64,000 nt of DNA from an uncultured Gammaproteobacteria bacterium (GTDB taxonomy: Bacteria > Patescibacteriota > Patescibacteriia > Magasanikbacterales > GWA2-37-8): contig CAYXJO010000004.1 of assembly GCA_964465205.1 (NCBI GenBank), positions 9,671-73,670 on the forward strand. Direction: 5' to 3'. A model generated the notes under the pieces. It was not told the origin of the DNA and made no database searches. It saw only the letters and a list, made by a program, of their open reading frames with translations. The first letter of the stretch is position 1. Every line of letters begins with the position of its first letter. The translations under genes and the position numbers were made by a program. This document shows, one piece after another, positions 2,987 to 18,954 of this stretch.

Positions 2987-5900
2987 CTATTTTCCACCAC
3001 CAGCTCGGACAACTTTTTTGGGAGCCGGAGCAGGGGTTGGTGCTGGTGCGGCTGTCTTCGCTTTTTGTTGTGAAGCAGGTTTGGTATCTGTTTTTGCATC
3101 CGGTTTGGCCACGGGTTTGGTGGTGGCTTTGGTAGCGGTCTTGGCTGTGGTCGCTTTCTTTTTTTCTGCCTGGGTTTCTTCCACAGTTAGTGCAGTTATC
3201 AAATCTTTTACAAAATTTCTTTTTTCGTCTACCAATTCATTAATCTCTTTAGCTTTAAATTTTGGGAACAGGCGAAAGATTATAGCTGCACTCATGGCAT
3301 CTTGTTCTGCGCCTGGAGTTGGTAATTTCTTTTCCGAATTTATCCACTCCACAATTTCGGCCACAAAATCCAACATAAAAGTTTTGTCCCATTTATCTTG
3401 GCTAATGCGATTTTCAATTATGGCGGATAATTTTTCGGCCATTTTTTCTTGGCCAGCCGGCGGTAAATTGGGGTGAGCCTCGGCTATGGCCTGCTGCATT
3501 TCTTTTTTAATCATTTTTTTGTCAGCCGGCAATAATTCCAAAGCCATGGCTGCTGCTAATTCTGGCGGCGGCGGGGGAGCATTTGGTGCTTCTGCGGCTG
3601 CGCCACCAGTATTTGGTGGATTGTGAGAAGGAATTTCTACTGCCGCTCCGGATTTGTCTGGTGGCGGGGGAGGATTGCCGGGAGAACCCTCGGGATTTGA
3701 CCCGGTCGGTTTTTTTTGCCCATCTTCTTCTTTTTTCATTTTATCTCCAGCTCCTGGTGGAGGAGTTTCGCCCTTGGGTGACTTTGGTGGTTTGTCACCA
3801 GATTTTTTGTCGTCTTTCTTTTTGTCTGGGTATTGTCCTGGTTCCAAAGGTTTGCGATCATTCATTGGCAATGGTATGAACCAAGGATTGTTTTCTGGTG
3901 GCGCGATAGAAATTTCGTCAACACCAATTTCGCGTGGGCGAAATACATAGTCGGTTATTTCTTTGGTTGCATTTGGCACTTCGCCACCTTTGCCTACCAT
4001 GGTAGCGAGTACATGAGCCTTGCCGTCCGAAGAAGAATTATAGACAATTTCCCAAGTCCAGCGAGCAGAACCGTCTTTGTTCATAAGAGTTTGACCCAAT
4101 GTGCCGGCTTTGTCTATAGCCAATTCACCGTTGGTCATCGGCACATCAAAACCATTGCCCGCATTAAAGTCGCCAGTAGTGGGGTCGTAAAAACGAATGT
4201 GGAAATTGCTGAAATCACCCTTGGCCAAATCCGCTTTCATGACATTGTACATGGTATCAATAGTGCCGTCGTAGTTTACTTTGCCATCACGCAACATATC
4301 GTTGATGCCTTTTTTGAAGCTGAATGTCCAATCTTTGCCACTGTCATTTAGCATGCCGCGCAATTCTTTGCCGTCGTGAATGTGACCGGAAGTTTTGAGT
4401 ACGGTACCAACATCGCGGTTTTCGTATTCGCAATGTATATGGCCGCTATTATCAGAGATATGTTCATGGCGATATACGTGGTGTAATGGTTCAATACGAT
4501 CCGGCACTTGATCAGGGCGTAGTTCACCTTTCATTACACTATCATGCAATCGCTCTCCTAATTTCAGTGCTTCGCCTGTTGTTCTGGGCGACAAATCCAT
4601 GTCATAATGATGCCCTGGCCCCATGGTATCGTGACTGGTAAGTTTGCCAGACCACGGATCCATGTTGTTGTGCCAAATACGCGGCGCGTTATTCATTTGG
4701 CCGCCTAATTTTTGTAATTCCGCGATTACAGCATCGTGGCCTTTGACAGTAATAGTGTGAGAAGTCATCCCCACATCCCAGCCAGCTTTGTCCATGAGTT
4801 GTATAGAATTCGGATTAATGGTAGCACCATCAGGATTGAGTTGAAAATTGCCCACGGTTTTATTATTTTCGTCGGTAATTAGCATTTCAAATCCGTTAGT
4901 CGGGGATTTGGGCGCAACATGCCAGCCGTGGGGAAGAGTGAATTTGGTATTGAGACCAGGCACTTGTACAGTATCTGGGGCCATGGCCGGACTAGCGACA
5001 TGTTCACCGGTTACTTCGGAGTGTAGATGATTACTTTCGAAAATTTTGAACCCTTTGTCACGCAATGCATCCAAGGTTTGTTGAGGCAAACCACCTTGGG
5101 GATCGGGTTTAATATGGTCCAAAATCACATTACCTTTTACATCCGCGAGTATATAAGTTCCAGTGGCTTTGTCTAGTCCTATTTTCAAGCTACTATCCAA
5201 CGCCATTTCAGTGTTGTTGGAAAGCAATACCCCCGGAGCGAAATTGGGTGGATAGCCAGCACCATCGGTTTTGAAATATTCGGTCATTTTGCCAATCCAA
5301 CTGTGATCGAAACTGTCGCGCATGGTGGTTACCGCACATTCGGCTACTGCACCAGCCGCGAAGCCTACTACCGCCCCCATTGCACCCGCTTTGACCATTT
5401 CTAAGCGTCGCCAGTTTTTGAAACGTGCATCAGTGTTTTCGATTTGAGTAGAAATATCGTCTATGGCTTTTTGGGTTTCGGCATGTAATACGTCAGGATT
5501 AATACCGTGTTGTTGTTCTATGCGTTTGAGTAGGATTTTAATTTGATTGATAGAAGCAATACGAGTATTTAGATTTTTGCCTTCTTCACGCGCGGCCGAG
5601 AATAAATCCACTTGCTTTTCAGATTCCACTGCCAAGGCGGCAAAAATTCTAGCTACATAAGCACGTTCTTCGGAATTAACTTGCCCAGCCGGCTGGCGTG
5701 ATAAATTATCCAAAAATGCCACCACTTCTTCGGTGTGTAGTTTGAGATAATCAAACTTGCGCATTTCTTTGGCTCGATCACCAACAGCTTCTTGACCCAG
5801 CGCCGAACGACGCATTTCCATGCCACGATCATATTCCACATCGCGTCCACGACGCAAAGCTCCCATTACACCACCCATTATTGAACCTACCACTGGTGCG

Positions 5901-8824
5901 GCTAGTAGTGCGCGCATCGACATGCTGGCAGCGCCTTTGGTTATGGCAGTGGCAGTGGCCGCCGCTCCGGCAGCCGCAAAGGTGATTGGGGAAGATAATA
6001 CTTTGCCCAGCACTGGTACACTTTGGGCTTTGTCCACCAATTTGGTAAACCAAGAACTTACAAACCGCGGTTTGGTTTCACGAATGTCGCGTTCTTTGAG
6101 GCCAAGTTGTATTTCCAAATTCATGATACCTTTCAAGTGGCCAAGAATAATTTCGCGATTTTCCGGTCCGTATTTTTTTTCCATTTCTTTGGTAGCATCC
6201 TCGACGTACTTTTTGTAACTTTCGGCCAATTGATAAAAATTATGTGCAAACAGCAAACCTTTGGCCTCTTCGTCGTTGGCATTGGTAAATTTGTAGCCTT
6301 TGCGTTTGATAATCGGCAATATTCTTTCTTCCACTGTGGCATCGAACAACTGGCGTGACATCAAATGCGCACCGCTAGCGTGATCGAAAATTAAATCAGC
6401 TAATTCAGCATTGACTTCGGCGTCGTTGATATATTCACCTTTTTCATTTTCTTCGGCCACTTCGGCGGCAAAGGTTTCTATGATATTATTCAGTACTTCA
6501 AAATGGCGAATTTCTTTGTCGCGGGTAATCGGTTTGCCTTCACTACGTGAAAGCAACGCCGCTTCGATTTCGGTCATGAGGTTTTTGTTTTTTTGGATTT
6601 CGTTTACTGATTCACGATAGAATTTATCCAAATATAATTTTTCACTCGGACGAATAAACATGGAGCTGCGCAATTGGCGCCCTACTTTTTTGGCGGTTTC
6701 CCATGGGTGGGTGACTGCCTCTTTGACACCATGGGCCAAACGACCAAAGAATCCGCGTTTGGGTTCTGGTGCCTGTGGTGGTTGAGCGTTGTTTGGATCA
6801 AGTCCGCGCATGTAGGCGTTGAGTTTTTCTTCGGCCTGCGACCAAGCCAAACGTTCTACTACTTTGGATACGTCGATAAGATACGCTCTGTTCGGCGGGC
6901 GAATTGGCTCTGGCTCTGGTATGCGGATCGGCTCTGGTTTGGGTTCTGGTGTTTCTGGTTTCGGTTCTTTTACTTTGTCATCATCTTCCGGCGGATTTTC
7001 CATAAAATTCAAATTTTCCGGTAAGACCGCCGTACTAATATTATCTTGTTCATCTTTGCCGAGTTTGCCATCTTCGCCTGGTTCATCTACACCCGGAACA
7101 CCTTTCTTTTTCTTGGGCAAAATTAATTCACGGCGTTTTTTGAGAGCACGTTCGGCCAGCAGCCAATTTTTCTCATCGTCACCGGTTTTGCGATGATCTT
7201 TGTGCACCAAGTATGCTTCGCGGCGTTTGCGCCACTCATCCCATTTATCGGTGGGTTCACTCGCGTTGGCATCAATTAATTTTATTACACTATCGATTTC
7301 TTTGGTGGCAGATTTGGTTTCGTCTTCAATTTTCGCGTCTAAATCCGCACTGTCCGCACCGGTGTCGGCTTTCATCTTGTCGAATTTTTGTTTGAGTTCA
7401 TCCACGGTTTGCTGGCGAATTTCTCTCAACGCTTCCAATAGATCGTCTACCGGAATACCTTCACGTCGGCAATTTTCGGAACCTTTGGATTCGCACACTT
7501 CGAATTTACCGTCATCAGTCTCGTCGCTTTCCAAATTTTCTTTGGCATCTTTCACAGCGGCTATTATCCACTTCAATCGTTCGGCGCCATCTGCTTTTTT
7601 ACCCATTTTATCCAAAGATTTTTTCAAAATACCCACCGCTTTGTCCACGGCTTGGAGTAATGATTCGCGCTCTGGCCCCTGCTCTTTGGCTTCGGCTTTG
7701 GCAGTTGGTTTGGCCTCTGGTTGAGGCATGTTTTCCGCCGCGTCATCTTGGGCGCTGGCATCCACCTTTTTTTTGTATTCGGCAATCATAGGTATTTTAC
7801 TTAAATATTTTTTATACATGTCAATATAATGGCCGCTCTTATCATCCGTGTTGCCATATCCACCAGCTTGGCTATCGTATTCGTAAGCCGGAGTGGTGAG
7901 ATCTTCCGCGCGAATCCAGTTTTCTTTGACGCCGTGCGAAGTCATCTTGGCTGCGTTGGATTCAATGCCGCCGATCCAGGCGCGCCCTTTTTTGTCGCGA
8001 CAAAAGACGTATGTTAAATTGTTATTTTTGGAAGGATAACATTCAAAGGTGATGGGCCCATACATTACCGATCCACCTTGCCAACTGTCGATCATTTTGC
8101 CAAAATCCGGTTCGTTGTTTTTGTCGTCGAAACCAATTTCACCTGGTGGTAATTTTTTCCCGTGGTTAGCCTTGGTCTCTTCGGGTGTGGCGGATTTGAC
8201 TTTAAAATTCCCGGGCAGATCTACAGGTTGAGAACTAACGTCGATTAGAAAAGAATGTCCTTTTTTGACAGCGTCATTATAGCGGGTGTCCAAATTGGCC
8301 GCTGTACCCATGAATACAAATTCAGCGTCGGGAATCGGTTTGATATTTTTATCATCCAAAGTCATTTCGGATAAAGCTTTTTGCATGGCGGCCGGCAACA
8401 TGATGGATTCTTCGCCGTATTCTTTGGAATACCAACCGGTGGCATAAGAGGCGAGTAGCCGCCACACGCCCTGAGAATTACTGCGCCAAAAAGAACGTGG
8501 CACCAAAGATCCACCTCGTTCGATAAATCCGGTTACCGCCGCGCGTCCACTACCGATATCGTATGGATGCGAAGATAGCCAGATATTTTGTCCACCCATT
8601 TCAATTTTATATTGGGGGAGGACGCCGTTTTTTTTGAAATCTTCCGGGGAAAGCATTTTGCCGTTATACTCGCTGGCACTGCCGGACAAGATAACTTTGT
8701 CCAGAAGTTTTTCGGCTTCGGTGTCGGGAACTTTTTCAATTTTAATTTTAAAACCAACTTGCGTAGGATTTTTCGCCTGATCTGGTGTTGAACGTTTAGT
8801 TTCGGCGTGGTTTTGTCCCGACAT
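2987..8824 (-). CDS. Giant 1945-aa multidomain protein with two Gly/Ala-rich TM hairpins, coiled-coil stretches, a His-rich region with a tandem SGHIH motif (M23-peptidase-like, uncertain), a poly-Pro linker and a Lys/Ala/Thr/Pro-rich C-terminal tail
   Basis: One uninterrupted minus-strand ORF. Hydrophobic Gly/Ala-rich segments encode VLGKVLSSPITFAAAGAAATATAITKGAASM (about nt 5830-5990) and MVKAGAMGAVVGFAAGAVAECAVTTM (about nt 5320-5400). The His-rich region at about nt 4380-4500 reads HHYDMD...SGHIHCEYENRD...SGHIHDGKE. A PPPPP run lies near nt 3600-3900. The C-terminal tail reads KKKATTAKTATKATTKPVAKPDAKTDTKPASQQKAKTAAPAPTPAPAPKK. Confidence 0.8.
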   Translation of the reverse strand: MSGQNHAETKRSTPDQAKNPTQVGFKIKIEKVPDTEAEKLLDKVILSGSASEYNGKMLSPEDFKKNGVLPQYKIEMGGQNIWLSSHPYDIGSGRAAVTGFIERGGSLVPRSFWRSNSQGVWRLLASYATGWYSKEYGEESIMLPAAMQKALSEMTLDDKNIKPIPDAEFVFMGTAANLDTRYNDAVKKGHSFLIDVSSQPVDLPGNFKVKSATPEETKANHGKKLPPGEIGFDDKNNEPDFGKMIDSWQGGSVMYGPITFECYPSKNNNLTYVFCRDKKGRAWIGGIESNAAKMTSHGVKENWIRAEDLTTPAYEYDSQAGGYGNTDDKSGHYIDMYKKYLSKIPMIAEYKKKVDASAQDDAAENMPQPEAKPTAKAEAKEQGPERESLLQAVDKAVGILKKSLDKMGKKADGAERLKWIIAAVKDAKENLESDETDDGKFEVCESKGSENCRREGIPVDDLLEALREIRQQTVDELKQKFDKMKADTGADSADLDAKIEDETKSATKEIDSVIKLIDANASEPTDKWDEWRKRREAYLVHKDHRKTGDDEKNWLLAERALKKRRELILPKKKKGVPGVDEPGEDGKLGKDEQDNISTAVLPENLNFMENPPEDDDKVKEPKPETPEPKPEPIRIPEPEPIRPPNRAYLIDVSKVVERLAWSQAEEKLNAYMRGLDPNNAQPPQAPEPKRGFFGRLAHGVKEAVTHPWETAKKVGRQLRSSMFIRPSEKLYLDKFYRESVNEIQKNKNLMTEIEAALLSRSEGKPITRDKEIRHFEVLNNIIETFAAEVAEENEKGEYINDAEVNAELADLIFDHASGAHLMSRQLFDATVEERILPIIKRKGYKFTNANDEEAKGLLFAHNFYQLAESYKKYVEDATKEMEKKYGPENREIILGHLKGIMNLEIQLGLKERDIRETKPRFVSSWFTKLVDKAQSVPVLGKVLSSPITFAAAGAAATATAITKGAASMSMRALLAAPVVGSIMGGVMGALRRGRDVEYDRGMEMRRSALGQEAVGDRAKEMRKFDYLKLHTEEVVAFLDNLSRQPAGQVNSEERAYVARIFAALAVESEKQVDLFSAAREEGKNLNTRIASINQIKILLKRIEQQHGINPDVLHAETQKAIDDISTQIENTDARFKNWRRLEMVKAGAMGAVVGFAAGAVAECAVTTMRDSFDHSWIGKMTEYFKTDGAGYPPNFAPGVLLSNNTEMALDSSLKIGLDKATGTYILADVKGNVILDHIKPDPQGGLPQQTLDALRDKGFKIFESNHLHSEVTGEHVASPAMAPDTVQVPGLNTKFTLPHGWHVAPKSPTNGFEMLITDENNKTVGNFQLNPDGATINPNSIQLMDKAGWDVGMTSHTITVKGHDAVIAELQKLGGQMNNAPRIWHNNMDPWSGKLTSHDTMGPGHHYDMDLSPRTTGEALKLGERLHDSVMKGELRPDQVPDRIEPLHHVYRHEHISDNSGHIHCEYENRDVGTVLKTSGHIHDGKELRGMLNDSGKDWTFSFKKGINDMLRDGKVNYDGTIDTMYNVMKADLAKGDFSNFHIRFYDPTTGDFNAGNGFDVPMTNGELAIDKAGTLGQTLMNKDGSARWTWEIVYNSSSDGKAHVLATMVGKGGEVPNATKEITDYVFRPREIGVDEISIAPPENNPWFIPLPMNDRKPLEPGQYPDKKKDDKKSGDKPPKSPKGETPPPGAGDKMKKEEDGQKKPTGSNPEGSPGNPPPPPDKSGAAVEIPSHNPPNTGGAAAEAPNAPPPPPELAAAMALELLPADKKMIKKEMQQAIAEAHPNLPPAGQEKMAEKLSAIIENRISQDKWDKTFMLDFVAEIVEWINSEKKLPTPGAEQDAMSAAIIFRLFPKFKAKEINELVDEKRNFVKDLITALTVEETQAEKKKATTAKTATKATTKPVAKPDAKTDTKPASQQKAKTAAPAPTPAPAPKKVVRAGGGK

Positions 8825-9182: not shown

Positions 9183-9667
9183 ATTATATATATAATGTAT
9201 AAAGCCAGCGTGGGCTGGTCCGCCGGGTGGCGGATTGTTTATACTTTATCGTATCACAAAATCCGCTTTTTTTCAAATTTGGCATAAAATGAATTTTGGC
9301 TAATATTAGCTAAATACGGCGGGGATGTGGATAACTTTATGTTCACCCCCTTGACAAAAGTCCAAAATCGTGATATAGTATTCTGTTATGAAATAATCGA
9401 GCAGCTTTTGAGAGAGGAGCAGCCCGATTGTGTCACTGAATACCCTCTCGCCCAAAGAGGTTTTTTGTTAAGTAATGGTTTACCTATCAGTTCGTTACAA
9501 TCTAGTAGTGAAGACTCTGGCACAAAGTTGTATATATCATATATATGGTAATCAGCTTTGTGCTAGAGTGTAGAATGTCCAGTGCGCGGAATAATCCGTA
9601 GCGCTTGGCAAAGATGTCCCCAAGGCGTGCCGCACAGCGGCCCAATTGAACCAAAAAGGAGCCTACC

Positions 9668-10513
9668 ATGTCCGACAAGAACCAGACCCCCGAAAACGGA
9701 ACCGAAACCAACCAGACCCCCGAAATCCCCAAGGACAAGAAGGAGAATCCCATGCCCGAACCGAAGAAGACCCTGCCCCAGAAGTTCGACTACAACACCG
9801 GCCGCGAGCCCAAACATGCCGACGGCAGCAACCACGGCGCGCTGTGGTTCGTCGCCATCGCGGCGCTCGTGCTCGCCATCGGCGGCCTGGCGCTCGGAAG
9901 CGTGAACTACAGCGACATCGGCGGCTTGACGACCCTCATCAAGGGCCACAGCACCGACATCGCCAACTTGGTCAAAGAGAACGACGCCCGCAAAGCCGAG
10001 AACGACGACATGTATCTCAACCACGTCATGCCGGCCGAGGACGCCATCAGCGGCCTCAAGGTTCGCATGAACACCGCCGAAGGCACCATCAACGCCCACG
10101 GCAAGGCCATCACGGACGCCGAGAAGAACATCGTGTGGCTCACCGGCCAGAACAAGAAGGTCAACAAGGCGCTCTCGGAAAATGCCGAAACCGTCAAGAA
10201 TCAGGGCAAGACCATCGGTCAGTACGGCCAGAATTTCGAAAAGGTCAACGGCACGCTCGTCAAGCACGACGACCGCCTCGACTCGCTCGAAAAACGCCCC
10301 ATGACCAACAAGGCCAATCCCTTGTCCACCGGCGGCCCCACGGTCCTGTGGTGCGCGGGCAGCCTGAACAACCGGTTCGGCTGTCTGAACGACAAGCCCG
10401 TCGAGAAAGAGGTCGACGCGATCAAGCTCGCCTGCGGACCCGGCGGCTCGAAGAACGTCGCGAAGTTCGAAAACGGAACTTACGGCGATTTCGCCCCGGT
10501 CAACTGCAACTAG
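9668..10513 (+). CDS. Membrane-anchored coiled-coil protein (281 aa) with a single N-terminal TM helix and a 4-Cys C-terminal domain. First gene of the GC-rich island.
   Basis: AAGGAG RBS 8 nt upstream of the ATG. TM segment ALWFVAIAALVLAIGGLALGSV. Heptad-like region rich in K/E/N. Cys residues in the last 60 aa. GC is about 62%. Confidence 0.7.
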   Translation: MSDKNQTPENGTETNQTPEIPKDKKENPMPEPKKTLPQKFDYNTGREPKHADGSNHGALWFVAIAALVLAIGGLALGSVNYSDIGGLTTLIKGHSTDIANLVKENDARKAENDDMYLNHVMPAEDAISGLKVRMNTAEGTINAHGKAITDAEKNIVWLTGQNKKVNKALSENAETVKNQGKTIGQYGQNFEKVNGTLVKHDDRLDSLEKRPMTNKANPLSTGGPTVLWCAGSLNNRFGCLNDKPVEKEVDAIKLACGPGGSKNVAKFENGTYGDFAPVNCN

Positions 10514-10777
10514 GCCACCTCACTACTACACATGCTCTTTCGGCGTGGGACCCTCCGGGGTTCCACGCCACTCTTACATTGTTTATGATAGTCCCTTTTT
10601 AGGGACATATCATAGACAGCGTAGGAGTTAAGTCCTTTACATTTTAGAAGTCGTTAAGACCTTTCTGAGAGTTCCTGGTACAAAGAGAGGAACTATTTTA
10701 GTTTCTGTCTCTGTACCATGAACTTATTACCCACGATGTTCGTCACTTTCCTGCCGCAATGGCAAAGGAGGCTCGCA

Positions 10778-11401
10778 ATGAAACACCTATCCCTGTCTTT
10801 GGCGTTTATCGCCGCCCTGCTCATCTTCGGTTCCTTGGCCAACGCCTCGGAAGCCGACAACCCGCCCGTTGGTTGGCAGAACATTCCTCAGCTCCCGGAA
10901 AACAAGGAAGCCTGCAAGCTCGTCCCGGCCCTCACCCTCTTCGGAGGCGGCGGCTATGTGACCGGCGTCGAGAATCGCGGCAAACAACACGGCGAAGGCT
11001 TCGGTCTGGCCGTGGGATCGCTCGCGTTCAGCTTCCGCGCCACCCAGCACTTCATCGTCACTCCGCAACTTGACTTCGGTCTGGGCGGAGCGAAGAATGG
11101 TCGCTGGACCAGCTCGCTTGGCGTTCTGTTCGGAGGCCGTACGTATGGCGACGGGTTTCGTTTGTCCGCCGGGTTTTCCTGGGTGACTTACAACAACCTG
11201 GCCATCAAGGACGGCGGCTGGTGGTTGAACGGCGTGGGATTCCCCGTCAAGATGGACTTTAAACCGTGGGACAACAAGTACCCGGTTTTCTTCTCCATCA
11301 TGGCGACCCCGTTCGTCGGTATCAACCGCGGCAAGCACACCGGCGGCGGCCTGGAATTCCTGGGCGCTGGCATCGGCGGCGACTTGCCCTCGCCATTCTG
11401 A
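10778..11401 (+). CDS. Secreted OMP-like small beta-barrel protein (208 aa, C-terminal Phe)
   Basis: AGGAGG RBS and a signal peptide MKHLSLSLAFIAALLIFGSLANA with an A-N-A cleavage site. Gly/aromatic-rich amphipathic strands. The protein ends ...DLPSPF. The ORF-track start at 10718 is an upstream in-frame extension. Confidence 0.5.
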   Translation: MKHLSLSLAFIAALLIFGSLANASEADNPPVGWQNIPQLPENKEACKLVPALTLFGGGGYVTGVENRGKQHGEGFGLAVGSLAFSFRATQHFIVTPQLDFGLGGAKNGRWTSSLGVLFGGRTYGDGFRLSAGFSWVTYNNLAIKDGGWWLNGVGFPVKMDFKPWDNKYPVFFSIMATPFVGINRGKHTGGGLEFLGAGIGGDLPSPF

Positions 11402-11421
11402 TCTCAACGACTTCTCAACCC

Positions 11422-11460
11422 AGGTGGGCCGAGCTTCAGCTCGGTCCCACCCATTTTTAG
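11422..11460 (+). terminator. Intrinsic terminator after the OMP-like gene
   Basis: Hairpin GTGGGCCGAGC-TTCA-GCTCGGTCCCAC followed by CCATTTTT. Confidence 0.6.
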
Positions 11461-11681
11461 TGGTCACAATGATTTGTGAATACTAAAAAAGACATAAATT
11501 TATTTGTGTCTTGAGTTCATTAAAATTCGGATTAGAAAAACAAACACTTGGTACAAAGTTGATTGTCTCTTTGGTAATTAGCTTTGTGCCAAGTGATAAA
11601 TTCGGCGAGGTACAAAGCGTAGTGCTTTGTCCGCCGGTGAAAATTGAAAGCGTGTTCTCTACCACAAAGGAGTTTGAAGCC

Positions 11682-13145
11682 ATGAAACACACGATGCTGC
11701 TGGTTCTGATTGCCCTGATCGCGGCCCTGTTCACCATCGGTTGTTCGGCGGCGGGCGAAGACGCCCCCCAGAACATCATCGACGGCGACTCGACCGTGGA
11801 CGGCGACACCAACGAGGCCACCGAGGCCGACGGCGACTCCCAGGCCGAAGACGGGGATACCACGGAAGCGACCGAAGAGGAAAGCGAAAGCGAAACCTCG
11901 GACGGCGACTCGACCGTGGACGGCGACTCGAACGAAGGCGAACAGCCCGAGACCGAAGAAGCCGACACCGACACCACCCCCTACATCTGCCCCGGCACGA
12001 AGTTCGTGACCGGGCCGGCCGTGACCTGGCTGCAGAGCTGGGCCACCGGCGAGGAAAATCCCATCGACGCCGCCGGCACGTCTTGCACGTGTCCGGAAAG
12101 CGGCTGCGGACAGCAGCCCTGCGCGTGGTTGAACCCGCCGCGGAACTCGCGCATCACCACCTCGAACGGCACCTGCACCACCGAAGGCGACGACATCACC
12201 CTGTGCTACTACATGTCGCCGAGCCCGTCTCAGGAAACGTATGCGCCTTTCGTTACCCCCCAGGGTACGAAAGTCTGCACGCATGACGGACTTTACAGCG
12301 GCGCCCACGTCGAAGTCGACGGCGACACCGATACGGTGCTCCCCGACGGCGACTCGAACGAAGGCGAAGAAGAGGTGGACAACACCGAGACCGCCGACGG
12401 GGACATCGTTCCCGACGGGGACTCGGATACCACCGAGGCCGAACAAGAAGCCGACACGGAAGTCCCGGTGAACGAATGCCTGAGCAATGCGAATTGCGAC
12501 GACGGCCAAGCGTGCACCTATGACGAGTGCGTGTTTCTCACTTCGGGCAACCGCTGCGTTCGTTCGAACGAGGCCAACGGATCGCATTGCGACCCTGGCG
12601 TCAGCTTCGACGACGGATACTGCTACGAGGGTTCCTGCCACGGTTTCAACAACTGCGAGTCGAACCTCGACTGCCCCATGATTGACAACTGCAACTCGCA
12701 GCTCTGCATCATGGGCGAGTGTTACCCCAGCGAATCGGCGCCCCGTCCGGGCATTACCTGCGACGACGACAACCCCGATACCTACAGCGACGTTTGCAAC
12801 AGCAACGGCGTCTGCGAGGGAACTCCCAACGGGCAACAGACCGGTTTCGGGACTTGGGCCCTGCTGTTCGGCATGACCAATTGCCCCTCCTGGACGGTCG
12901 GCATCGACCATACCGGCAATGAGTCCGGCCCGAATGCTGAACACCAGGAAGACAGCGTCTGCTATTCCCGCACTGTGGGCGACAATCAAGCCCATTCGAT
13001 CTGGGGCCACATTGACCCCTGGGGTACGCAGCCTCCGGCCGGAATGAAGGTGCTCTGCACCACAAAGTACGGTACCCAATATTGGACCCCATGGGTTCAG
13101 GGTAACGGCGGCTGGTGGTTCGTCTGTTCCAACGACGGCCACTAA
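11682..13145 (+). CDS. Acidic Cys-rich secreted lipoprotein (487 aa), paralog of the next gene
   Basis: AGGAG RBS. Lipoprotein signal MKHTMLLVLIALIAALFTIGC (lipobox TIGC). The segment after the lipobox Cys is a DGD/TE/EA acidic low-complexity linker. The C-terminal half has many Cys in CxDG.xC patterns. The ORF-track start at 11511 is an in-frame upstream extension through the leader. Confidence 0.75.
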   Translation: MKHTMLLVLIALIAALFTIGCSAAGEDAPQNIIDGDSTVDGDTNEATEADGDSQAEDGDTTEATEEESESETSDGDSTVDGDSNEGEQPETEEADTDTTPYICPGTKFVTGPAVTWLQSWATGEENPIDAAGTSCTCPESGCGQQPCAWLNPPRNSRITTSNGTCTTEGDDITLCYYMSPSPSQETYAPFVTPQGTKVCTHDGLYSGAHVEVDGDTDTVLPDGDSNEGEEEVDNTETADGDIVPDGDSDTTEAEQEADTEVPVNECLSNANCDDGQACTYDECVFLTSGNRCVRSNEANGSHCDPGVSFDDGYCYEGSCHGFNNCESNLDCPMIDNCNSQLCIMGECYPSESAPRPGITCDDDNPDTYSDVCNSNGVCEGTPNGQQTGFGTWALLFGMTNCPSWTVGIDHTGNESGPNAEHQEDSVCYSRTVGDNQAHSIWGHIDPWGTQPPAGMKVLCTTKYGTQYWTPWVQGNGGWWFVCSNDGH

Positions 13146-13493
13146 ACCACCCCACCCGCACGGCGGGCTAATCCGATCACATAACCTAGGGCGGCAGGCT
13201 TCGGCTTGCCCCCTAGGCCTTTTACTTGAGATCATTATTCGTAGTGCTCTCAAGAAAAAGTTGTTTACCAACTATAGAAATTTCCTTACCTGCGGGCGCT
13301 TGTCCTTGTGCGTGAGGTTCGGGAGATTTTTGTGGTGGATAGGCAACTATCCAACATGATCCACTGTGTCTCTCTCCCAGTGGATTTTTGTTTCAACGGA
13401 GAGTTGCCCTTTGAAAATTGAGGATTAGAAAAACAACAACACACACGTCCACGTCTCGTTCCCATCTTTGCATGAAGAAAGGAGAAAATTCTC

Positions 13494-16400
13494 ATGCACC
13501 ACACGTCCCTTTCCCAAAAGTTACTTTTTGTGCTCTCGGTCTTGGCATTTCTCGTGATTGCTGGCTGTGGGAGCACCACCGTTACTACTGACGCCAATGA
13601 CGGCGACATGGAAGCGGTGGAATTGGACAATTCCGATGGGGACGAACCCATCAATGACGGCGACATCGAAAAAACGGAAGCCGAAGCCGACCAGGCCGAA
13701 GCGGAAGAAGATTCGACGGAAGCCGACACCGACACCGACGGCGACACGGAAGTTGAAAATTGCCAGAACTGGTACCCGGTTACCCCGCAGGTTGCTTTTT
13801 GCGATCTATTGGAGGAAGACCTCGGCCGCTTGGAGCGGATTTGCTACCAAGAGCAGCCGTCGCGACGCGAATGCTCGACCACCAAGGTCGGCGCGATCGG
13901 TTTCCAGTGCTCTATGGGAGCTACCTTCGTCATTTGCTATGACACGAATGGCGCGCCGGTTACCCCGGTCGTCTGTATCGTGAATGGCGAACGGACGCCG
14001 GCGATGGATAGCATCGCGGACACGGGTTTCCCGGGTTGCGACTATACCGTCATGCCGGTGGACGGCGACGAAGAGGAAGGCGAAAGCGAAGGCGAGACTG
14101 AAGAAGTCGAACCGGCCGACGGCGACACGGAAGTTTTGCCTGACGGCGACACCGAAGAGGTGCTCCCCGATGGCGATACGACCGAACAGCCCGAGGCCGA
14201 AGCTGAGGCGGACAACACCGAAGCCGTCGACGGGGACATTATTCCCGACGGCGACTCGGATATCACCGAGATCGACTCTGACCCCGAGTTGCCCCCGGTT
14301 TGCGAACCGGCGTGCGTGAGCGACGATCCTTGCAAACAGGCGGTGTGCGTCAATGGCACCTGCTTGTACGATTTGCTCACGGGCCTCGCCTGCGACGACG
14401 GCAACGCCTGCACGCGCGTGGATACGTGCTTGCTGGGCGAGTGCATCGGCGGCGACGAAGTCGTGTGTCAGGCCCTGGACCAGTGCCATTTGGTGGGGGA
14501 ATGTAACCCCGCCACCGGCACCTGCACCAGCCCGGCCGCAAACGACGGCACGCCCTGCAACGACGTGAGTCTCTGCACCACCCTCGACACCTGTTTGTCC
14601 GGCGTGTGCGGCGGCGCCGCCGTCGTGTGCAATGATAACAACGGTTGCACGAACGACTCGTGCGACCCGGAGCACGGCTGCGCGTTCGAACCAAATCTCA
14701 ACGCTTGCGACGATCACAACGCTTGCACCACGGGCGACATCTGTTCGAACGGCGGCTGCAGCGGCACGACCATCTCCTGCGACGATCTCAACCCCTGCAC
14801 CGACGACTCGTGCGACGCCGTTCTCGGCTGTCGCCATGTGCCCAACACCGCGTCCTGCGACGATGGCAATTGGTGCACGGTCGGCGACGTGTGCGGAGGC
14901 GGCACCTGCCACTCCGGCGCCACGCGCGACTGTTCAACCTTTGACTCGCAGTGCTCTAAAGGCATCTGCGACGAAGCCAACGATCAGTGCGTCAGCGATC
15001 CGCGTCCCCTCGAAGGGAAGTTGTGCGACGCCGACGCCAACGGCTGCACCAAAGACGATTACTGCCACGCGGGCGACTGCGTGAAGGGTACCGTCGTGGA
15101 CTGCACCGGGCAGAACGACCAGTGCAATACTGGCGTCTGCTATTCGACCGGCAACAATTCGTCCGTCTGCCTCAAGGACCCGACGCCGAAGCAGGGTAAC
15201 ATCTGCGACGACGGGGCCTATTGCACCATGGGGGAAACTTGCAACAACGGGGAGTGCATGAACGGCACCGCCCGCAATTGCACCGTTTTCACCGATCAAT
15301 GCAACGTGGGTACGTGCGACGAAACGCACGACACCTGCGTTCCTGTGGCCGTGGTAAACGGAACGGTCTGCAACGACGACAGCCTCTGCACCCAGAGCGA
15401 CACATGTCAATTTGGGATTTGCAAAGGCGATAACCCCGTCGTGTGTGGAGCACAGGACCAGTGCCATTTCGTGGGCACTTGTAACCCGTCCACCGGGACG
15501 TGTTCGAATCCGGTCAAACCGGACAACACGACCTGCGATGACGGTTCGCTGTGCACCAAGGAAGACAAGTGTACGGCCGGCACCTGCGGAGGCAGCACCG
15601 TTTTGTGCGACGACAACAATGTTTGCACGGACGACGTCTGTTTGCCTAAGGCCGGATGTCTGCACGCCAACAACTTCAACCCCTGCGACGACGGCAACGC
15701 CTGTACGCAGGGCGACATGTGCGGATACGGTCGATGCGAGGGCGAAGCGGTCGTCTGCGATGATGGCAACGTCTGCACGGACGACTATTGCGACATCGCC
15801 GCCGGCTGCAAAGCGGCTTTAAACGCCGCCCCTTGCGACGACAGCAACGCCTGCACCCAGGTTGACACCTGCTTGCTCGGTCAGTGCGTCGGGGGCAACC
15901 CTAAGACGTGCCCGGCCGAAGACGAATGCACCTATGCCGGCATCTGCGAACCGTCGGACGGGTTGTGTCGTGTTCAGTTCAAGCCTGAAGGTCTGCGTTG
16001 CAACGATAACGACAGTTGTACCGTCGGCGAGTACTGCGCTCTCGGTGTGTGCGGCGATGGCATTAGCCCCTGTGGCAGCCAGCACTGTCAGCCGATGAGT
16101 CCGAGCGGATACTACTGCTCGGAGTGTTGGAACGACGGCGATTGTCAGAGTGGATTCGCGTGCCTGCATCACGTTTGCGTCGATACCGCATGCGACGATG
16201 ACAATGCCTGTACGGTCGATACATTCAATCCGGTTATGGGTTGTCGCCACGATCAACGCACCTGCGACGACGGCAACGCCTGCACGTTCGACTTCTGCGA
16301 CACCATCGCCGGCTGCAAAACATTCCCGCTTTCGGGGATCGCGTGTAGCTCGGCCGATCCGAACGTGTGCAATGTGTATAAATGCAGCGCCGGGTCGTGC

Positions 16401-17069
16401 GATTACGATCACATGAAGAATTGCACGGACTACGACCGCACCACGGCCGATTCGTGCAACCCAACCACTGGCGAATGCATATACGACCCCATCCCCACCG
16501 ACGGCGACAGCGACGGCGATACCGAAACTGAAGCCGAGATTGATATAACCGACGGCGACCTCGACACCGAGAACGACACCGAAGAAACGCCGGCGTGCAT
16601 CCCGGCCAACTGCGACGACCAAAACCCCTATACGACGGATATTTGCGAGGCCGGCAACTGCCGCCACGTGGATAATCTCGCGCGGGCCTTTGTAATGCAG
16701 TTGCCGATTAACACCCAGATCACCAACGTGATCTTGTGGCCCACTGCGGGCACCGGCTATATCCATGACTACGTCGTCGCCACCGAATTACCAAAGGTTG
16801 ACACCAACGGCGACAGCGTGGTGGATTCGTACGAACTGGATATCTTGGCCGAGTTCTTGGCCGGACGTATCACGGAGCTGCCCGGTTCCGCCCAGGTGAT
16901 CTACCCGGGGTGGGACGGCGACGGCTTCCCGTGTTCGCCGCCTACGCCTACCGGCATCTGTCTGCTCAGCGACGGCACCACCGTTCAGCTGGTCTGGATG
17001 GCGGGCGGTCGTAACGCCCTTGGATGCCCATGGGACGGAGCGGTCGGATTCCCGATCGTTTGTCACTAA
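13494..17069 (+). CDS. Giant acidic lipoprotein (1191 aa) made of about 20 tandem 38-42-aa Cys-rich repeats (C[DN]DGNACT.[DG]D.C..G.C). These resemble the Myxococcus-type cysteine-rich repeat. A C-terminal dockerin/EF-hand-like loop reads DTNGDSVVDSYELD.
   Basis: RBS GAAAGGAG. Lipobox IAGC in MHHTSLSQKLLFVLSVLAFLVIAGC. Acidic DGDTE linkers. The linker DNTEAVDGDIIPDGDSDITE is nearly identical to DNTETADGDIVPDGDSDTTE in the upstream paralog. GC3 is very high. Confidence 0.8.
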   Translation: MHHTSLSQKLLFVLSVLAFLVIAGCGSTTVTTDANDGDMEAVELDNSDGDEPINDGDIEKTEAEADQAEAEEDSTEADTDTDGDTEVENCQNWYPVTPQVAFCDLLEEDLGRLERICYQEQPSRRECSTTKVGAIGFQCSMGATFVICYDTNGAPVTPVVCIVNGERTPAMDSIADTGFPGCDYTVMPVDGDEEEGESEGETEEVEPADGDTEVLPDGDTEEVLPDGDTTEQPEAEAEADNTEAVDGDIIPDGDSDITEIDSDPELPPVCEPACVSDDPCKQAVCVNGTCLYDLLTGLACDDGNACTRVDTCLLGECIGGDEVVCQALDQCHLVGECNPATGTCTSPAANDGTPCNDVSLCTTLDTCLSGVCGGAAVVCNDNNGCTNDSCDPEHGCAFEPNLNACDDHNACTTGDICSNGGCSGTTISCDDLNPCTDDSCDAVLGCRHVPNTASCDDGNWCTVGDVCGGGTCHSGATRDCSTFDSQCSKGICDEANDQCVSDPRPLEGKLCDADANGCTKDDYCHAGDCVKGTVVDCTGQNDQCNTGVCYSTGNNSSVCLKDPTPKQGNICDDGAYCTMGETCNNGECMNGTARNCTVFTDQCNVGTCDETHDTCVPVAVVNGTVCNDDSLCTQSDTCQFGICKGDNPVVCGAQDQCHFVGTCNPSTGTCSNPVKPDNTTCDDGSLCTKEDKCTAGTCGGSTVLCDDNNVCTDDVCLPKAGCLHANNFNPCDDGNACTQGDMCGYGRCEGEAVVCDDGNVCTDDYCDIAAGCKAALNAAPCDDSNACTQVDTCLLGQCVGGNPKTCPAEDECTYAGICEPSDGLCRVQFKPEGLRCNDNDSCTVGEYCALGVCGDGISPCGSQHCQPMSPSGYYCSECWNDGDCQSGFACLHHVCVDTACDDDNACTVDTFNPVMGCRHDQRTCDDGNACTFDFCDTIAGCKTFPLSGIACSSADPNVCNVYKCSAGSCDYDHMKNCTDYDRTTADSCNPTTGECIYDPIPTDGDSDGDTETEAEIDITDGDLDTENDTEETPACIPANCDDQNPYTTDICEAGNCRHVDNLARAFVMQLPINTQITNVILWPTAGTGYIHDYVVATELPKVDTNGDSVVDSYELDILAEFLAGRITELPGSAQVIYPGWDGDGFPCSPPTPTGICLLSDGTTVQLVWMAGGRNALGCPWDGAVGFPIVCH

Positions 17070-17078
17070 TCCTCAACG

Positions 17079-17140
17079 CCCCCTAGGGGGCACAACCGGC
17101 TCGGGGGGGGGAGAAATCTCCCCCCGGCCAAATATTTTTC
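17079..17140 (+). terminator. GC-rich palindromes and terminator at the end of the island
   Basis: Perfect palindrome CCCCCTAGGGGG, followed by hairpin GGGGGGGGAGAAATCTCCCCCC and a T-run. Confidence 0.5.
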
Positions 17141-17267
17141 TATCAATCAAATGCTTGAATACAAAAATTATTCAAACATCCGATTGGCAGATTAATTTCC
17201 GCCAAAACAAAAATTCCACCTTTTTCTCTCTCTAGGTGGATTTTTGTTTTCAAAAACAAATAAAAAA

Positions 17268-17382
17268 ATAGCCGTATAGATATTGGTTTTCGCCAGCGGC
17301 CATCGCACCCCGCCGTGCGGGGCGTAGCGCCGACAATCCGGCGCAAGTCTGGCCGCCAGAAAACTAATATCTATACGGCTAT
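17268..17382. repeat. GC-rich palindromic structured element, copy 1 (115 bp)
   Basis: An about 80-nt GC-rich core contains internal hairpins CCCCGC-CGT-GCGGGG and GCGCCG-ACAATC-CGGCGC. It is flanked by a perfect 17-bp AT-rich inverted repeat ATAGCCGTATAGATATT / AATATCTATACGGCTAT. Confidence 0.6.
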
Positions 17383-17389
17383 TATAATT

Positions 17390-18787
17390 TTAGGATGTTG
17401 TTTTTGAACTCCAAAAACCCCACATCGTCCAGATCCACCATATCACCGGCGTATGATGCAACATATTATCTGACACACTCAGTGCCAAATACACAAGAAT
17501 CGAAGAGATGAACACAATATTTGTCCAACTACTATTCCACCCGATTTTTAATTGTGTCAAAAATAGCGTCAAGTAAATAGTGACAAATAACAGTAATCCG
17601 ATAATGCCAGTCTCGAACCCTACTTTAAGATAATCATTGTGCGCTTCTGAGGTATTATCCCAAATATTTTTAACCGGTTTATTATCATCCCACACTTTGG
17701 CAAAAGCGCCATACCCATAGCCAATTATAGGGTGCTCGAAATATAGTGGTAATACTTTGTTGGCTACATCGGCGCGCCACTGAATGGAGTCGGCTTCTTG
17801 ATTACGAGTGGTCAAACGCGCGATTAGTGAATTGGACTGCAAATTAATATTGAATTCGTCTGTCAAAAAATTATTTACCGGATAAAACAAAATATAGAAT
17901 ACTCCCACCGACAGAGCCAGCTCTATTAGTAGTTTTGGCCGATAAATAATCCCAAGGATTATTAAAAATATCAGTAATCCTAGCCAGGCAATACGAGTAT
18001 AAGTAAAGGCCACTATGAGTGCCAATAATATCAGCGCTACAATTAATATGTTCTGTTTTTGAACAAAAATTTTGTTCACCCATGAATCGCTGATTTGGAA
18101 AAGTGGGCGATTGTGCAAGTGTACAAGATATCTATCGGCTATGGCCATAAAAATTAGCAAGGCAAAGGTGGCCATGATGTTGGGGTGAGCGAATGTACCA
18201 TAGATTCTGTTGGGCGTACCGTCGATAGTCATACCGGAATGGGTAATAAACTGGAAAATAGCCACGGTGATAGGTACTATGGCCGAAGAGAATAATGCCC
18301 AGTGTAGCCAGTGACCGTATTTATCTTTGTTTTTTTGATACAAAACGAAAGAAATACCAAATAGTGCAAATAAGTCGAGCGCCTTTACTGTTTCTATAAT
18401 AGTAGTGCTTTTATCGTGGCTCCAAACAAAACTAATCAAACACCAGGCGCAAAAACATATCCATAATTTTTTGAGTGGGATTTTATGCCAGTATTCCGAG
18501 TTTTTGAGAAAGAAGTAAGCAGACCACACCAAAAGAATGCCGGCCAGAGCCGCGTTGATGTTGATATGAATATTTTCATAAGAAAAAATCATCACATCTC
18601 GCCATTGATCGATCGCTGGTCGCGCCACGAGTAGTATCAAGACAGTGTATTCTTTGAAGGTGGCGTGCAAAAGCAAGAACAATAATGCCAAAAAGGCCAG
18701 TATATTAATATTGGTGATTGGGTTGAAGATGATAGTGAGGGTGAATAGTACGGCGAGCCAAGCTATCCCCGGCATTTTCATTTGCAT
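17390..18787 (-). CDS. O-antigen ligase/polymerase family (Wzy_C-like) polytopic membrane protein
   Basis: More than 10 predicted TM helices. Motifs FAHPNIMATF and AHNDYLKVGFETGIIGLLLF are typical of WaaL/O-antigen ligase periplasmic loops. Confidence 0.65.
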   Translation of the reverse strand: MQMKMPGIAWLAVLFTLTIIFNPITNINILAFLALLFLLLHATFKEYTVLILLVARPAIDQWRDVMIFSYENIHININAALAGILLVWSAYFFLKNSEYWHKIPLKKLWICFCAWCLISFVWSHDKSTTIIETVKALDLFALFGISFVLYQKNKDKYGHWLHWALFSSAIVPITVAIFQFITHSGMTIDGTPNRIYGTFAHPNIMATFALLIFMAIADRYLVHLHNRPLFQISDSWVNKIFVQKQNILIVALILLALIVAFTYTRIAWLGLLIFLIILGIIYRPKLLIELALSVGVFYILFYPVNNFLTDEFNINLQSNSLIARLTTRNQEADSIQWRADVANKVLPLYFEHPIIGYGYGAFAKVWDDNKPVKNIWDNTSEAHNDYLKVGFETGIIGLLLFVTIYLTLFLTQLKIGWNSSWTNIVFISSILVYLALSVSDNMLHHTPVIWWIWTMWGFWSSKTTS

Positions 18788-18843: not shown

Positions 18844-18954
18844 GTGGTATGGATATTTAATTTTCTGGCGGCCAGACTTGCACCGGATCGTTGGCGCTAC
18901 GTCCCGCGCGGCGGGATGCGATGGCCGCTGGCGAAAATCAAATATCCATACCAC
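18844..18954. repeat. GC-rich palindromic structured element, copy 2 (111 bp), in inverted orientation to copy 1
   Basis: The core is the reverse complement of the copy-1 core with 6 substitutions, of which at least two pairs are compensatory within stems. Its flanks form a different perfect 15-bp inverted repeat GTGGTATGGATATTT / AAATATCCATACCAC. Confidence 0.6.

Follow-up and report, generated by a model that had tools for sequence, protein, structure and literature searches.

A putative secreted beta protein with a possible small-barrel fold, encoded in a four-gene cassette native to a clade of Candidatus Magasanikbacteria

We analysed a stretch of 64,000 nt (hereafter the window; contig CAYXJO010000004.1, positions 9,671 to 73,670 of the forward strand), deposited as DNA of an uncultured Gammaproteobacteria bacterium, and within it the gene at 10778-11401 on the plus strand, which is the second of a cassette of four genes and is called the target here. 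The open reading frame (ORF) is a real gene, running from an ATG at 10778 to a TGA at 11399-11401 and encoding 207 aa. An alternative ATG at 10718 lies inside a hairpin and has no Shine-Dalgarno (SD) sequence, and as both homologues found begin at an aligned MK, the start at 10778 is preferred. Overall, the data fit best with the target being a working extracellular component of a surface or partner-recognition cassette in a bacterium of the candidate phyla radiation (CPR). The gene and its product have the following parts, the structural ones taken from AlphaFold2 (AF2) models with their predicted local distance difference test (pLDDT) scores.

10764-10771 (+): SD sequence AAAGGAGG of the target gene, ending 6 nt 5' of the ATG, by direct reading of the sequence
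10778-10846 (+): putative signal peptide, residues 1-23, with cleavage motif ANA↓S, by sequence inspection; helical in the AF2 model
10847-10918 (+): Pro-rich linker of the mature protein, residues 24-47, from the alignment; pLDDT <50
10919-11401 (+): predicted all-beta, Gly/aromatic-rich domain, residues 48-207, ending at Phe207, from AF2 models, Foldseek and strand amphipathicity
11423-11458 (+): intrinsic terminator, a GC-rich hairpin GGTGGGCCGAGC-TTCA-GCTCGGTCCCACC followed by the T-run ATTTTT, by sequence reading

The N-terminus, MKHLSLSLAFIAALLIFGSLANA↓SE, was inspected by eye and shows n-, h- and c-regions plus an A-x-A motif; ANA is invariant across all family members (the window copy and two alleles). 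On this inspection, the target carries the N-terminal Sec signal peptide with a signal peptidase I site that is expected of an outer-membrane beta-barrel. The linker has a single 3-residue helical turn and otherwise no regular secondary structure in the AF2 model, and the linkers of the homologues are longer (~55 aa). The beta domain spans ~155 aa. In the mature protein, Gly makes up 18.5% of the residues and Phe, Trp and Tyr together 14.2% (Phe 8.7%, Trp 3.3%), with only ~15% charged residues. The C-terminus reads ...GGDLPSPF, and its terminal Phe is invariant in the family. An initial annotation made from the sequence had listed a cleavable signal peptide, Gly/aromatic-rich alternating strands and a terminal ...PSPF, and we found all three, with the strand faces alternating in both alleles. 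That the protein is secreted and all-beta is weakly supported.

To define the family, an exhaustive HMMER scan covered 1.84 billion (1.84e9) representative proteins. One true homologue of the target was found (P0001, 222 aa, E 1.8e-13), the remaining two matches being repeat artefacts, and a profile search added a second protein, P0004, which is 86% identical to P0001. The family as found thus comprises the window copy and these two alleles, which lie on eight groundwater metagenome contigs. Comparison of P0001 with P0004 gave a ratio of nonsynonymous to synonymous polymorphism (pN/pS) of 0.07 for the beta domain, versus 0.67 plus indels for the part made up of signal peptide and linker. Such strong constraint between two alleles indicates a functional protein, and purifying selection acts on the beta domain of the family.

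No homologue outside the CPR clade was detected in the HMMER scan, nor in a word-indexed search of 5.8e9 clusters, in which the single-protein query matched nothing. The family was not found in GTDB genomes with two strict peptide patterns, a test of low sensitivity, and neither scans of viral contigs nor blastn and tblastn against plasmids returned a homologue of the target. As judged by hmmscan, the target matched 0 families in Pfam-A and NCBIfam, and both homologues matched 0 Pfam families at E up to 10; the target profile had 0 matches among PDB sequences at E up to 10, and there was no PHROGs or PADLOC match for the target. By sequence comparison, the target therefore belongs to no known family of outer-membrane proteins (OMPs), and the family is most likely a new, lineage-restricted OMP-like secreted beta protein. 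An origin from a phage, plasmid or defence island was rejected, given that nothing was found on viral contigs or plasmids and that PHROGs and PADLOC did not match the target. The initial annotation had also proposed the gene as a marker for a donor lineage. This did not hold, as no homologue beyond the CPR clade turned up in the collections searched.

The host is a CPR bacterium of Ca. Magasanikbacteria. ClpB encoded in the window is 67-68% identical to that of metagenome-assembled genomes (MAGs) of Patescibacteria, both having the same arrangement of ClpB and a gene resembling penicillin-binding protein (PBP) 5, and MraY falls into a 90%-identity cluster with Candidatus Magasanikbacteria proteins. 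The genome of the window has 42% GC. In the 64-kb window, the envelope genes are those for peptidoglycan and surface glycans (Mur ligases, MraY, MurB, PBPs, an LtaS-like sulfatase, Wzy_C and glycosyltransferases), without any Bam, Lpt, Lol or TolC family. The earlier description of a CPR-like envelope with no Bam, Lpt or Lol genes in view was therefore correct. CPR bacteria have been proposed to lack an outer membrane (PMC6744442, PMC12102498, PMC8871954), and CPR-wide surveys and microscopy indicate no outer membrane, with PilQ, TonB-ExbBD and outer-membrane parts of type IV secretion systems absent (PMC6744442, PMC12102498). The closest ClpB match (68%) lies on the 400-kb contig CAZEDL010000001.1 (L005), which has a ClpB/PBP5-like arrangement like that of the window and of a Patescibacteria MAG; the label 'uncultured Gammaproteobacteria bacterium' of this contig is probably wrong.

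The cassette around the target, with third-codon-position GC content given as GC3 and related loci from other contigs as L001, L002, L084 and L086, is composed as follows.

9351-9379 (+): sigma-70-like promoter TTGACA-17-TATAGT with an extended -10 TG, heading the cassette; 11/12 consensus positions; kept in L086
9668-10513 (+): gene 1, 281 aa, with a cytoplasmic N-terminus, one transmembrane (TM) helix, an extracellular coiled coil and a Cys-containing C-terminal domain
10571-10724 (+): AT-rich spacer 5' of the target with two long hairpins (10571-10627 and 10670-10724) of the GGTACAAAG...CTCTGTACC type
10778-11401 (+): gene 2, the target; GC3 0.78
11480-11545 (+): conserved spacer block 5' of gene 3, carrying the GGATTAGAAAAACAA motif; ~85% nt identical to L001 and L002
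11682-13145 (+): gene 3, a 487-aa lipoprotein with lipobox FTIG↓C, an acidic DGD/T-rich linker and a Cys-rich domain; GC3 0.80
13215-13400 (+): structured spacer block 5' of gene 4; ~90% nt identical to L001 over ~195 nt
13494-17069 (+): gene 4, a 1191-aa lipoprotein with lipobox VIAG↓C, acidic linkers and many CDDGNxCT Cys-rich repeats

None of the four ORFs is interrupted, and they have SD sites. Clear terminators, each a hairpin followed by a T-run, close genes 2 and 3; the hairpin at the end of gene 1 has no T-run, and L001 has a hairpin equivalent to the target terminator with a different sequence. As each gene has its own terminator and a conserved spacer block ahead of it, independent transcription of each is probable. 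Ahead of genes 1, 2 and 3 there is a GGYACAAAG...CTTTGTRCC hairpin, and the GGATTAGAAAAACAA motif, which recurs at 13422, stands 5' of genes 3 and 4. Gene 1 (GC3 0.89) has the same architecture in L086 at 22% identity and gave only coiled-coil noise in Pfam, NCBIfam and PHROGs. The L001 counterparts are 32% identical for gene 3 (E 1e-31) and 36-43% identical for gene 4 (E 5e-88). Gene 4 matched Pfam Dicty_CTDC in 7 stretches (E 1.8e-18), and its repeats are visible at the DNA level. Searches of PDB sequences with genes 3 and 4 gave no match; a homologue search with the conserved domain of gene 3 matched nothing and also missed the known L001 copy, so that it was uninformative.

The contigs carrying the homologues show the same gene order as the cassette of the window. 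On the left flank, L086 has a giant protein, DUF5663, gene 1 and gene 2 in the order of the window, and on the right flank L084 has genes 2, 3 and 4 followed by a convergent Wzy-like gene, again in the order of the window. Amino acid identities between the window and its relatives were as follows.

Giant protein, left flank, L086: 50%
DUF5663, left flank, L086: 72%
Wzy-like gene, right flank, L084: 75%
Gene 1: 22%
Gene 2 (target): 32%
Gene 3: 32%
Gene 4: 36-43%

L001 and L002 are mosaic relative to each other, the identity being 92% with indels in gene 2, 100% in the spacer that follows and 99.7% in gene 3, and gene 4 of L084 is shortened and split. Because the locus is syntenic in related CPR genomes, the cassette must be a long-term resident of the clade: it is native to a clade of Ca. 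Magasanikbacteria and did not arrive recently as foreign DNA. In its behaviour, the locus is like a variable island of surface or partner-recognition genes that a CPR clade maintains.

No integrase, transposase, reverse transcriptase domain, junction tRNA or flanking direct repeats were found for the cassette. Readings as a diversity-generating retroelement or a mobile island were rejected for want of a reverse transcriptase, transposase, junction tRNA or flanking direct repeats. We likewise rejected an integron array, as there is no integrase domain in the window, the spacers are dissimilar, the gene order is orthologous and the genes have their own terminators. As a separate observation, L084 carries three tandem-like copies of ~40 nt (GTCGTCGGAATGACAA(A)CGTGTGTGT.ACAGAGATTCC) at 5560-5800, 3' of the cassette, which are absent from the window.

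The composition of the cassette sets it apart from its surroundings. The four genes (9668-17069, +) have a GC content of 0.61 and GC3 values of 0.76-0.89, versus 0.33-0.48 in 14 host genes. This bias is chiefly one of third-position C (0.54 versus 0.21 in host genes): NNC reaches ~0.8 in two-fold boxes, AAG and CAG are favoured and GAA is retained. The cassettes of the relatives (L001, L084, L086) show the same bias towards C-ending codons. The neighbouring gene DUF5663 of L086 has a GC3 of 0.69. The spacers of the cassette have a host-like GC content (0.41-0.47) and are better conserved than the genes. The compositional island described initially thus exists, but calling it a simple block of foreign DNA would be wrong.

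The non-coding spacers of the cassette (9183-9667, 10530-10730, 11480-11545, 13215-13400 and 17100-17250) contain blocks of 70-200 nt that are 80-90% nt identical to the relatives. They form long hairpins of 24-28 bp, in which some changes are compensatory or compatible with G.U pairing. RNAalifold gave 63 pairs, 3 with compensatory changes, for spacer 10571-10724 (~80% nt identity to L001 and L002) and 71 pairs, 4 with compensatory changes, for spacer 13215-13400. As a protein identity of 75% in the flank should mean that neutral sites are saturated, the spacers must be functionally constrained. Set against this constraint and the flank identities, the 22-43% protein identity of the cassette genes indicates that these evolve or are replaced unusually fast. 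The conserved spacers could be structured 5' leaders or recombination anchors. Three of the cassette spacers differ from each other except for short motifs, and Rfam returned only a chance-level Histone3 match on the cassette island (E 0.4). A small conserved ORF in spacer 3 was rejected, as its start codon is not kept in L001. A high GC3 is compatible with a local effect of recombination or gene conversion; two ideas are that alleles come in from a GC-rich pool via the conserved spacers, or that gene conversion at a recombination hot spot is biased towards GC. For a genome of 42% GC, it is an unusual pattern that GC3-rich genes diverge fast at one fixed position of the chromosome among spacers that are conserved, structured and AT-rich.

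The deposited gene calls lie on the other strand. Of the sense proteins of the island, none of those looked up occurs in exact form in a collection of 15 billion proteins. Over most of the cassette the collection lists antisense ORFs, 10787-11467, 13806-14912, 14934-15665 and 15819-16766 (all -), which come from the 82,147-bp NCBI contig that also supplied the flanking host proteins. SD sites, signal peptides, lipoboxes, the Pfam repeat match, the homologues and the pN/pS of 0.07 all indicate that the sense strand is the coding one, and genes this rich in GC3 evidently led the gene caller astray in a genome of 42% GC. The rarity of the family in protein databases is therefore partly an annotation artefact, and surface genes of this kind may be systematically absent from such databases. 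A planted or chimeric insert, considered because the collection lacks the sense proteins, was rejected, as the antisense ORFs on record come from the same NCBI contig and the locus is syntenic in independent metagenomes.

Structure prediction gave AF2 models that are not alpha-helical. In model 1 (single sequence, full length; pLDDT 47.7, predicted template modelling score (pTM) 0.34), the signal helix is followed by strands alone, and in model 2 (mature protein, 3-sequence alignment; pLDDT 56.7, pTM 0.51), there are 11 strand segments in up-and-down order, with two 3-residue helical turns besides. The best Foldseek matches of model 2 in the PDB were Ail (3qra, E 2.8e-4), OmpX and NspA, with a TM-score of 0.58 on the target. 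OmpA, the N-terminal part of OprF (OprF-N), OmpW and OprG were matched as well, so that the top matches were almost all outer-membrane barrels. Model 1 ranked OmpA, OmpW, OmpX and PagL first, without significance. In both alleles, most of the predicted strands have a hydrophobic/aromatic face opposite a Gly/Ser/Thr-rich polar face, and the homologues end in PIGLTYDF, a fit to the BAM-type beta-signal GxxYxF. An up-and-down sheet or barrel of 8-10 strands is predicted for the beta domain, and an OmpX-sized barrel is its most likely fold, which from the models we put slightly above an even chance.

The known proteins that the modelled target resembles most are the 8-stranded barrels of the OmpX/Ail/Lom and NspA/Opa groups (PDB 1qj9, 3qra, 1p4t), the model matches having E values of 2.8e-4 to 1e-3 and TM-scores of 0.5-0.58 on the target. 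Shared features are a beta domain of ~150 aa, Sec export, richness in Gly and aromatic residues, a final Phe and, in the models, an up-and-down antiparallel topology. Barrels of the Ail/Opa family have a role in adhesion. Unlike OmpX, Ail and NspA, the target has an extra Pro-rich N-terminal linker, a presumed monoderm host and no sequence similarity to them; its window copy is without the GxxΩxΩ beta-signal and its fold comes from low-confidence models. The barrels of OmpW/OprG and the N-terminal barrels of OmpA/OprF (PDB 2f1t, 2x27, 1bxw, 4rlc) are like the target in length and predicted topology and were matched by both models with weaker scores (E 6e-3 to 2.5e-2). By sequence, the target is a member of neither group, and unlike OmpA it has no OmpA_C peptidoglycan-binding domain.

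Several observations weigh against a barrel of this type and against the role built on it. Both models are of low confidence, and with such models a sequence rich in Gly and aromatic residues can yield barrel matches that are artefacts. In the better AF2 run, the remaining four models have pLDDT values of 31-46, and the strand count is ambiguous, at 8 to 11. Dyad amphipathicity alone does not discriminate between a membrane barrel and a soluble one. No OMP family could be linked to the target family by sequence, even at E 10. The window copy, ending in GGDLPSPF, keeps Leu at -5 and Phe at -1 of the beta-signal but has Pro at -2 and -4, no Gly at -6 and no aromatic residue at -3. To our knowledge, the Magasanikbacteria lineage has no membrane that could receive a barrel. 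Finally, the high GC3 in both lineages is not explained. An OMP-like fold is hence plausible from the models but not proven. Of the initial claim of an OMP-like barrel, which is reasonable, the structural side is weakly supported, as the best PDB matches of both models are small outer-membrane barrels, and the sequence side is not; the C-terminus put forward as a hallmark retains the final Phe and otherwise misfits the BAM beta-signal in the window copy. The structure prediction proposed as a check returned all-beta models at pLDDT 48-57.

Weighing all this, we regard a secreted small-barrel-like protein in a native, hypervariable CPR surface cassette as an evenly balanced proposition. In such a scenario, the target would be exported by Sec and cleaved by signal peptidase I after ANA, leaving a mature protein of ~19 kDa with a flexible Pro-rich N-terminal linker and then an antiparallel beta domain of ~155 residues. 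This domain would most likely close into a barrel the size of OmpX, Ail or OmpW, with one hydrophobic and one small/polar face. The other three proteins of the cassette are a coiled-coil stalk protein anchored by a TM helix and two lipoproteins that have long acidic linkers and heads of Cys-rich repeats, and every gene is under its own conserved, hairpin-rich and AT-rich leader or promoter block. The GC3-rich coding modules diverge far faster than the flanks and are exchanged mosaically among strains. In a host without an outer membrane, the barrel might work beyond the cytoplasmic membrane alongside the Cys-rich lipoproteins, on the cell surface or touching the membrane of a partner organism. 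The analysis shows a real gene under selection, its export signal and its all-beta character, together with the synteny, the identity of the host and the composition pattern; closure of the barrel, its insertion into a membrane and its function are what we infer here, the function from genomic context only.

If the barrel fold is true, an OMP-like protein is under selection in a lineage considered to be without an outer membrane, which bears on how CPR episymbionts contact their partner cells and on how strictly monoderm they are. A bolder and unlikely version would have the monoderm episymbiont export a true outer-membrane-type barrel, with a BAM-type beta-signal in most alleles, into the outer membrane of a diderm partner cell and not into its own envelope. 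There it would anchor, or form a conduit for, the hypervariable Cys-rich lipoprotein adhesins as an attachment or feeding device; recombination at the structured spacers would keep the locus hypervariable, and GC-biased gene conversion would possibly lift GC3.

The alternative that survives best, and that we consider possible though rather unlikely, is a secreted beta-rich protein outside any membrane: a soluble or wall-associated beta-sandwich or small barrel, for example an adhesin or ligand-binding module, that docks on the Cys-rich lipoproteins or on the surface glycan and whose likeness to OMPs is a modelling artefact. The pLDDT of 48-57 and the disagreement among five models are consistent with this, as are the missing OMP family match by sequence, a lineage without an outer membrane and the Pro-rich C-terminus of the window copy, which is unlike a terminal membrane strand. 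Pro-rich linkers are also typical of monoderm surface proteins, in which they serve as wall-spanning segments. However, the top structural matches of two independent models are nearly all membrane barrels, charged residues make up 15% and Gly 18.5% of the mature target, the polar faces are rich in Gly/Ser/Thr and not in Lys/Glu, and the homologues end in GxxYxF-COOH.

A secreted pore-former or bacteriocin-like weapon, which would oligomerise in the membrane of a competitor or partner and permeabilise it, seems improbable. The target is secreted, anchorless and Gly/aromatic-rich, its locus evolves fast and recombines as conflict genes do, and CPR bacteria need lipids and metabolites from partner cells. 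Yet no immunity gene is evident, Pfam, PDB sequences and PADLOC gave no similarity to beta pore-forming toxins or bacteriocins, and the models resemble monomeric barrels rather than toxin protomers.

Synteny and selection have largely refuted the view of the gene as a passenger of a GC-rich island that came from a diderm donor, without function or in decay in its CPR host, and we rate it as quite unlikely. It would account for the target GC3 of 0.78 against 0.33-0.48 in the host genes, for the third-position C and for a beta-signal that is degenerate in the window copy and canonical in the other alleles. But the locus is syntenic in relatives whose flanks are 72-75% identical, the four uninterrupted ORFs come with SD sites, terminators and regulatory spacers that are conserved, and the beta domain is constrained; the spacer GC is host-like with no integrase, transposase, tRNA junction or flanking direct repeat seen, and no diderm or other organism among the 1.84e9 representative proteins has a homologue. 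The choice offered by the initial annotation, either a host with an outer membrane or non-functional cargo, was therefore a false dichotomy, as the gene is intact, has its own SD sequence and terminator, belongs to a family under strong purifying selection (pN/pS 0.07) and is syntenic. That the Magasanikbacteria lineage has an outer membrane or an equivalent second lipid layer, with the target as an ordinary OMP, is very unlikely: an OMP-like protein with a canonical beta-signal in the alleles and two lipoproteins encoded in the cassette would suit it, but no family for outer-membrane biogenesis is found within 64 kb, and the CPR surveys and microscopy indicate no such membrane (PMC6744442, PMC12102498).

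At the level of the whole locus, a surface or partner-recognition cassette has parallels in other bacteria. In the vsp/vlp/vsa loci of Mycoplasma, which is wall-less and has a small genome, and in hypervariable surface-structure islands such as those for O-antigen and capsule, fast-diverging surface genes stand beside conserved non-coding or leader blocks. By analogy, the cassette resembles these loci in its repeat-rich lipoproteins, atypical GC, mosaicism between strains and adjoining surface-glycan genes. The sole sequence hints in this direction, towards variable surface-lipoprotein loci, were weak sub-threshold matches to DUF16 and VlpA_Nterm. Unlike in those loci, the order of the cassette is fixed and orthologous between lineages, the shift is to high GC3 and not to low GC, and the cassette showed neither a site-specific recombinase nor an invertible promoter.

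Further observations concern the neighbourhood of the cassette. To its left, no Pfam family matches the two very large ORFs 25-2928 (+) and 2987-8824 (-), which encode 967 aa and 1945 aa. The larger product is 50% identical to its L086 ortholog, compared with 72-75% for the neighbouring small genes, and is probably another fast-evolving surface protein. To the right, a GC-rich element of 77 nt occurs twice (17287-17363 and 18861-18937), the copies being inverted and 92% identical and flanking a Wzy_C/O-antigen-ligase-like gene at 17390-18787 (-). The first copy lies within a hairpin with a perfect stem of 25 nt (17267-17291 and 17359-17383), and the second overlaps the called start of a radical-SAM ORF. 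The element could be a small structured RNA, a miniature inverted-repeat transposable element or an inversion site.

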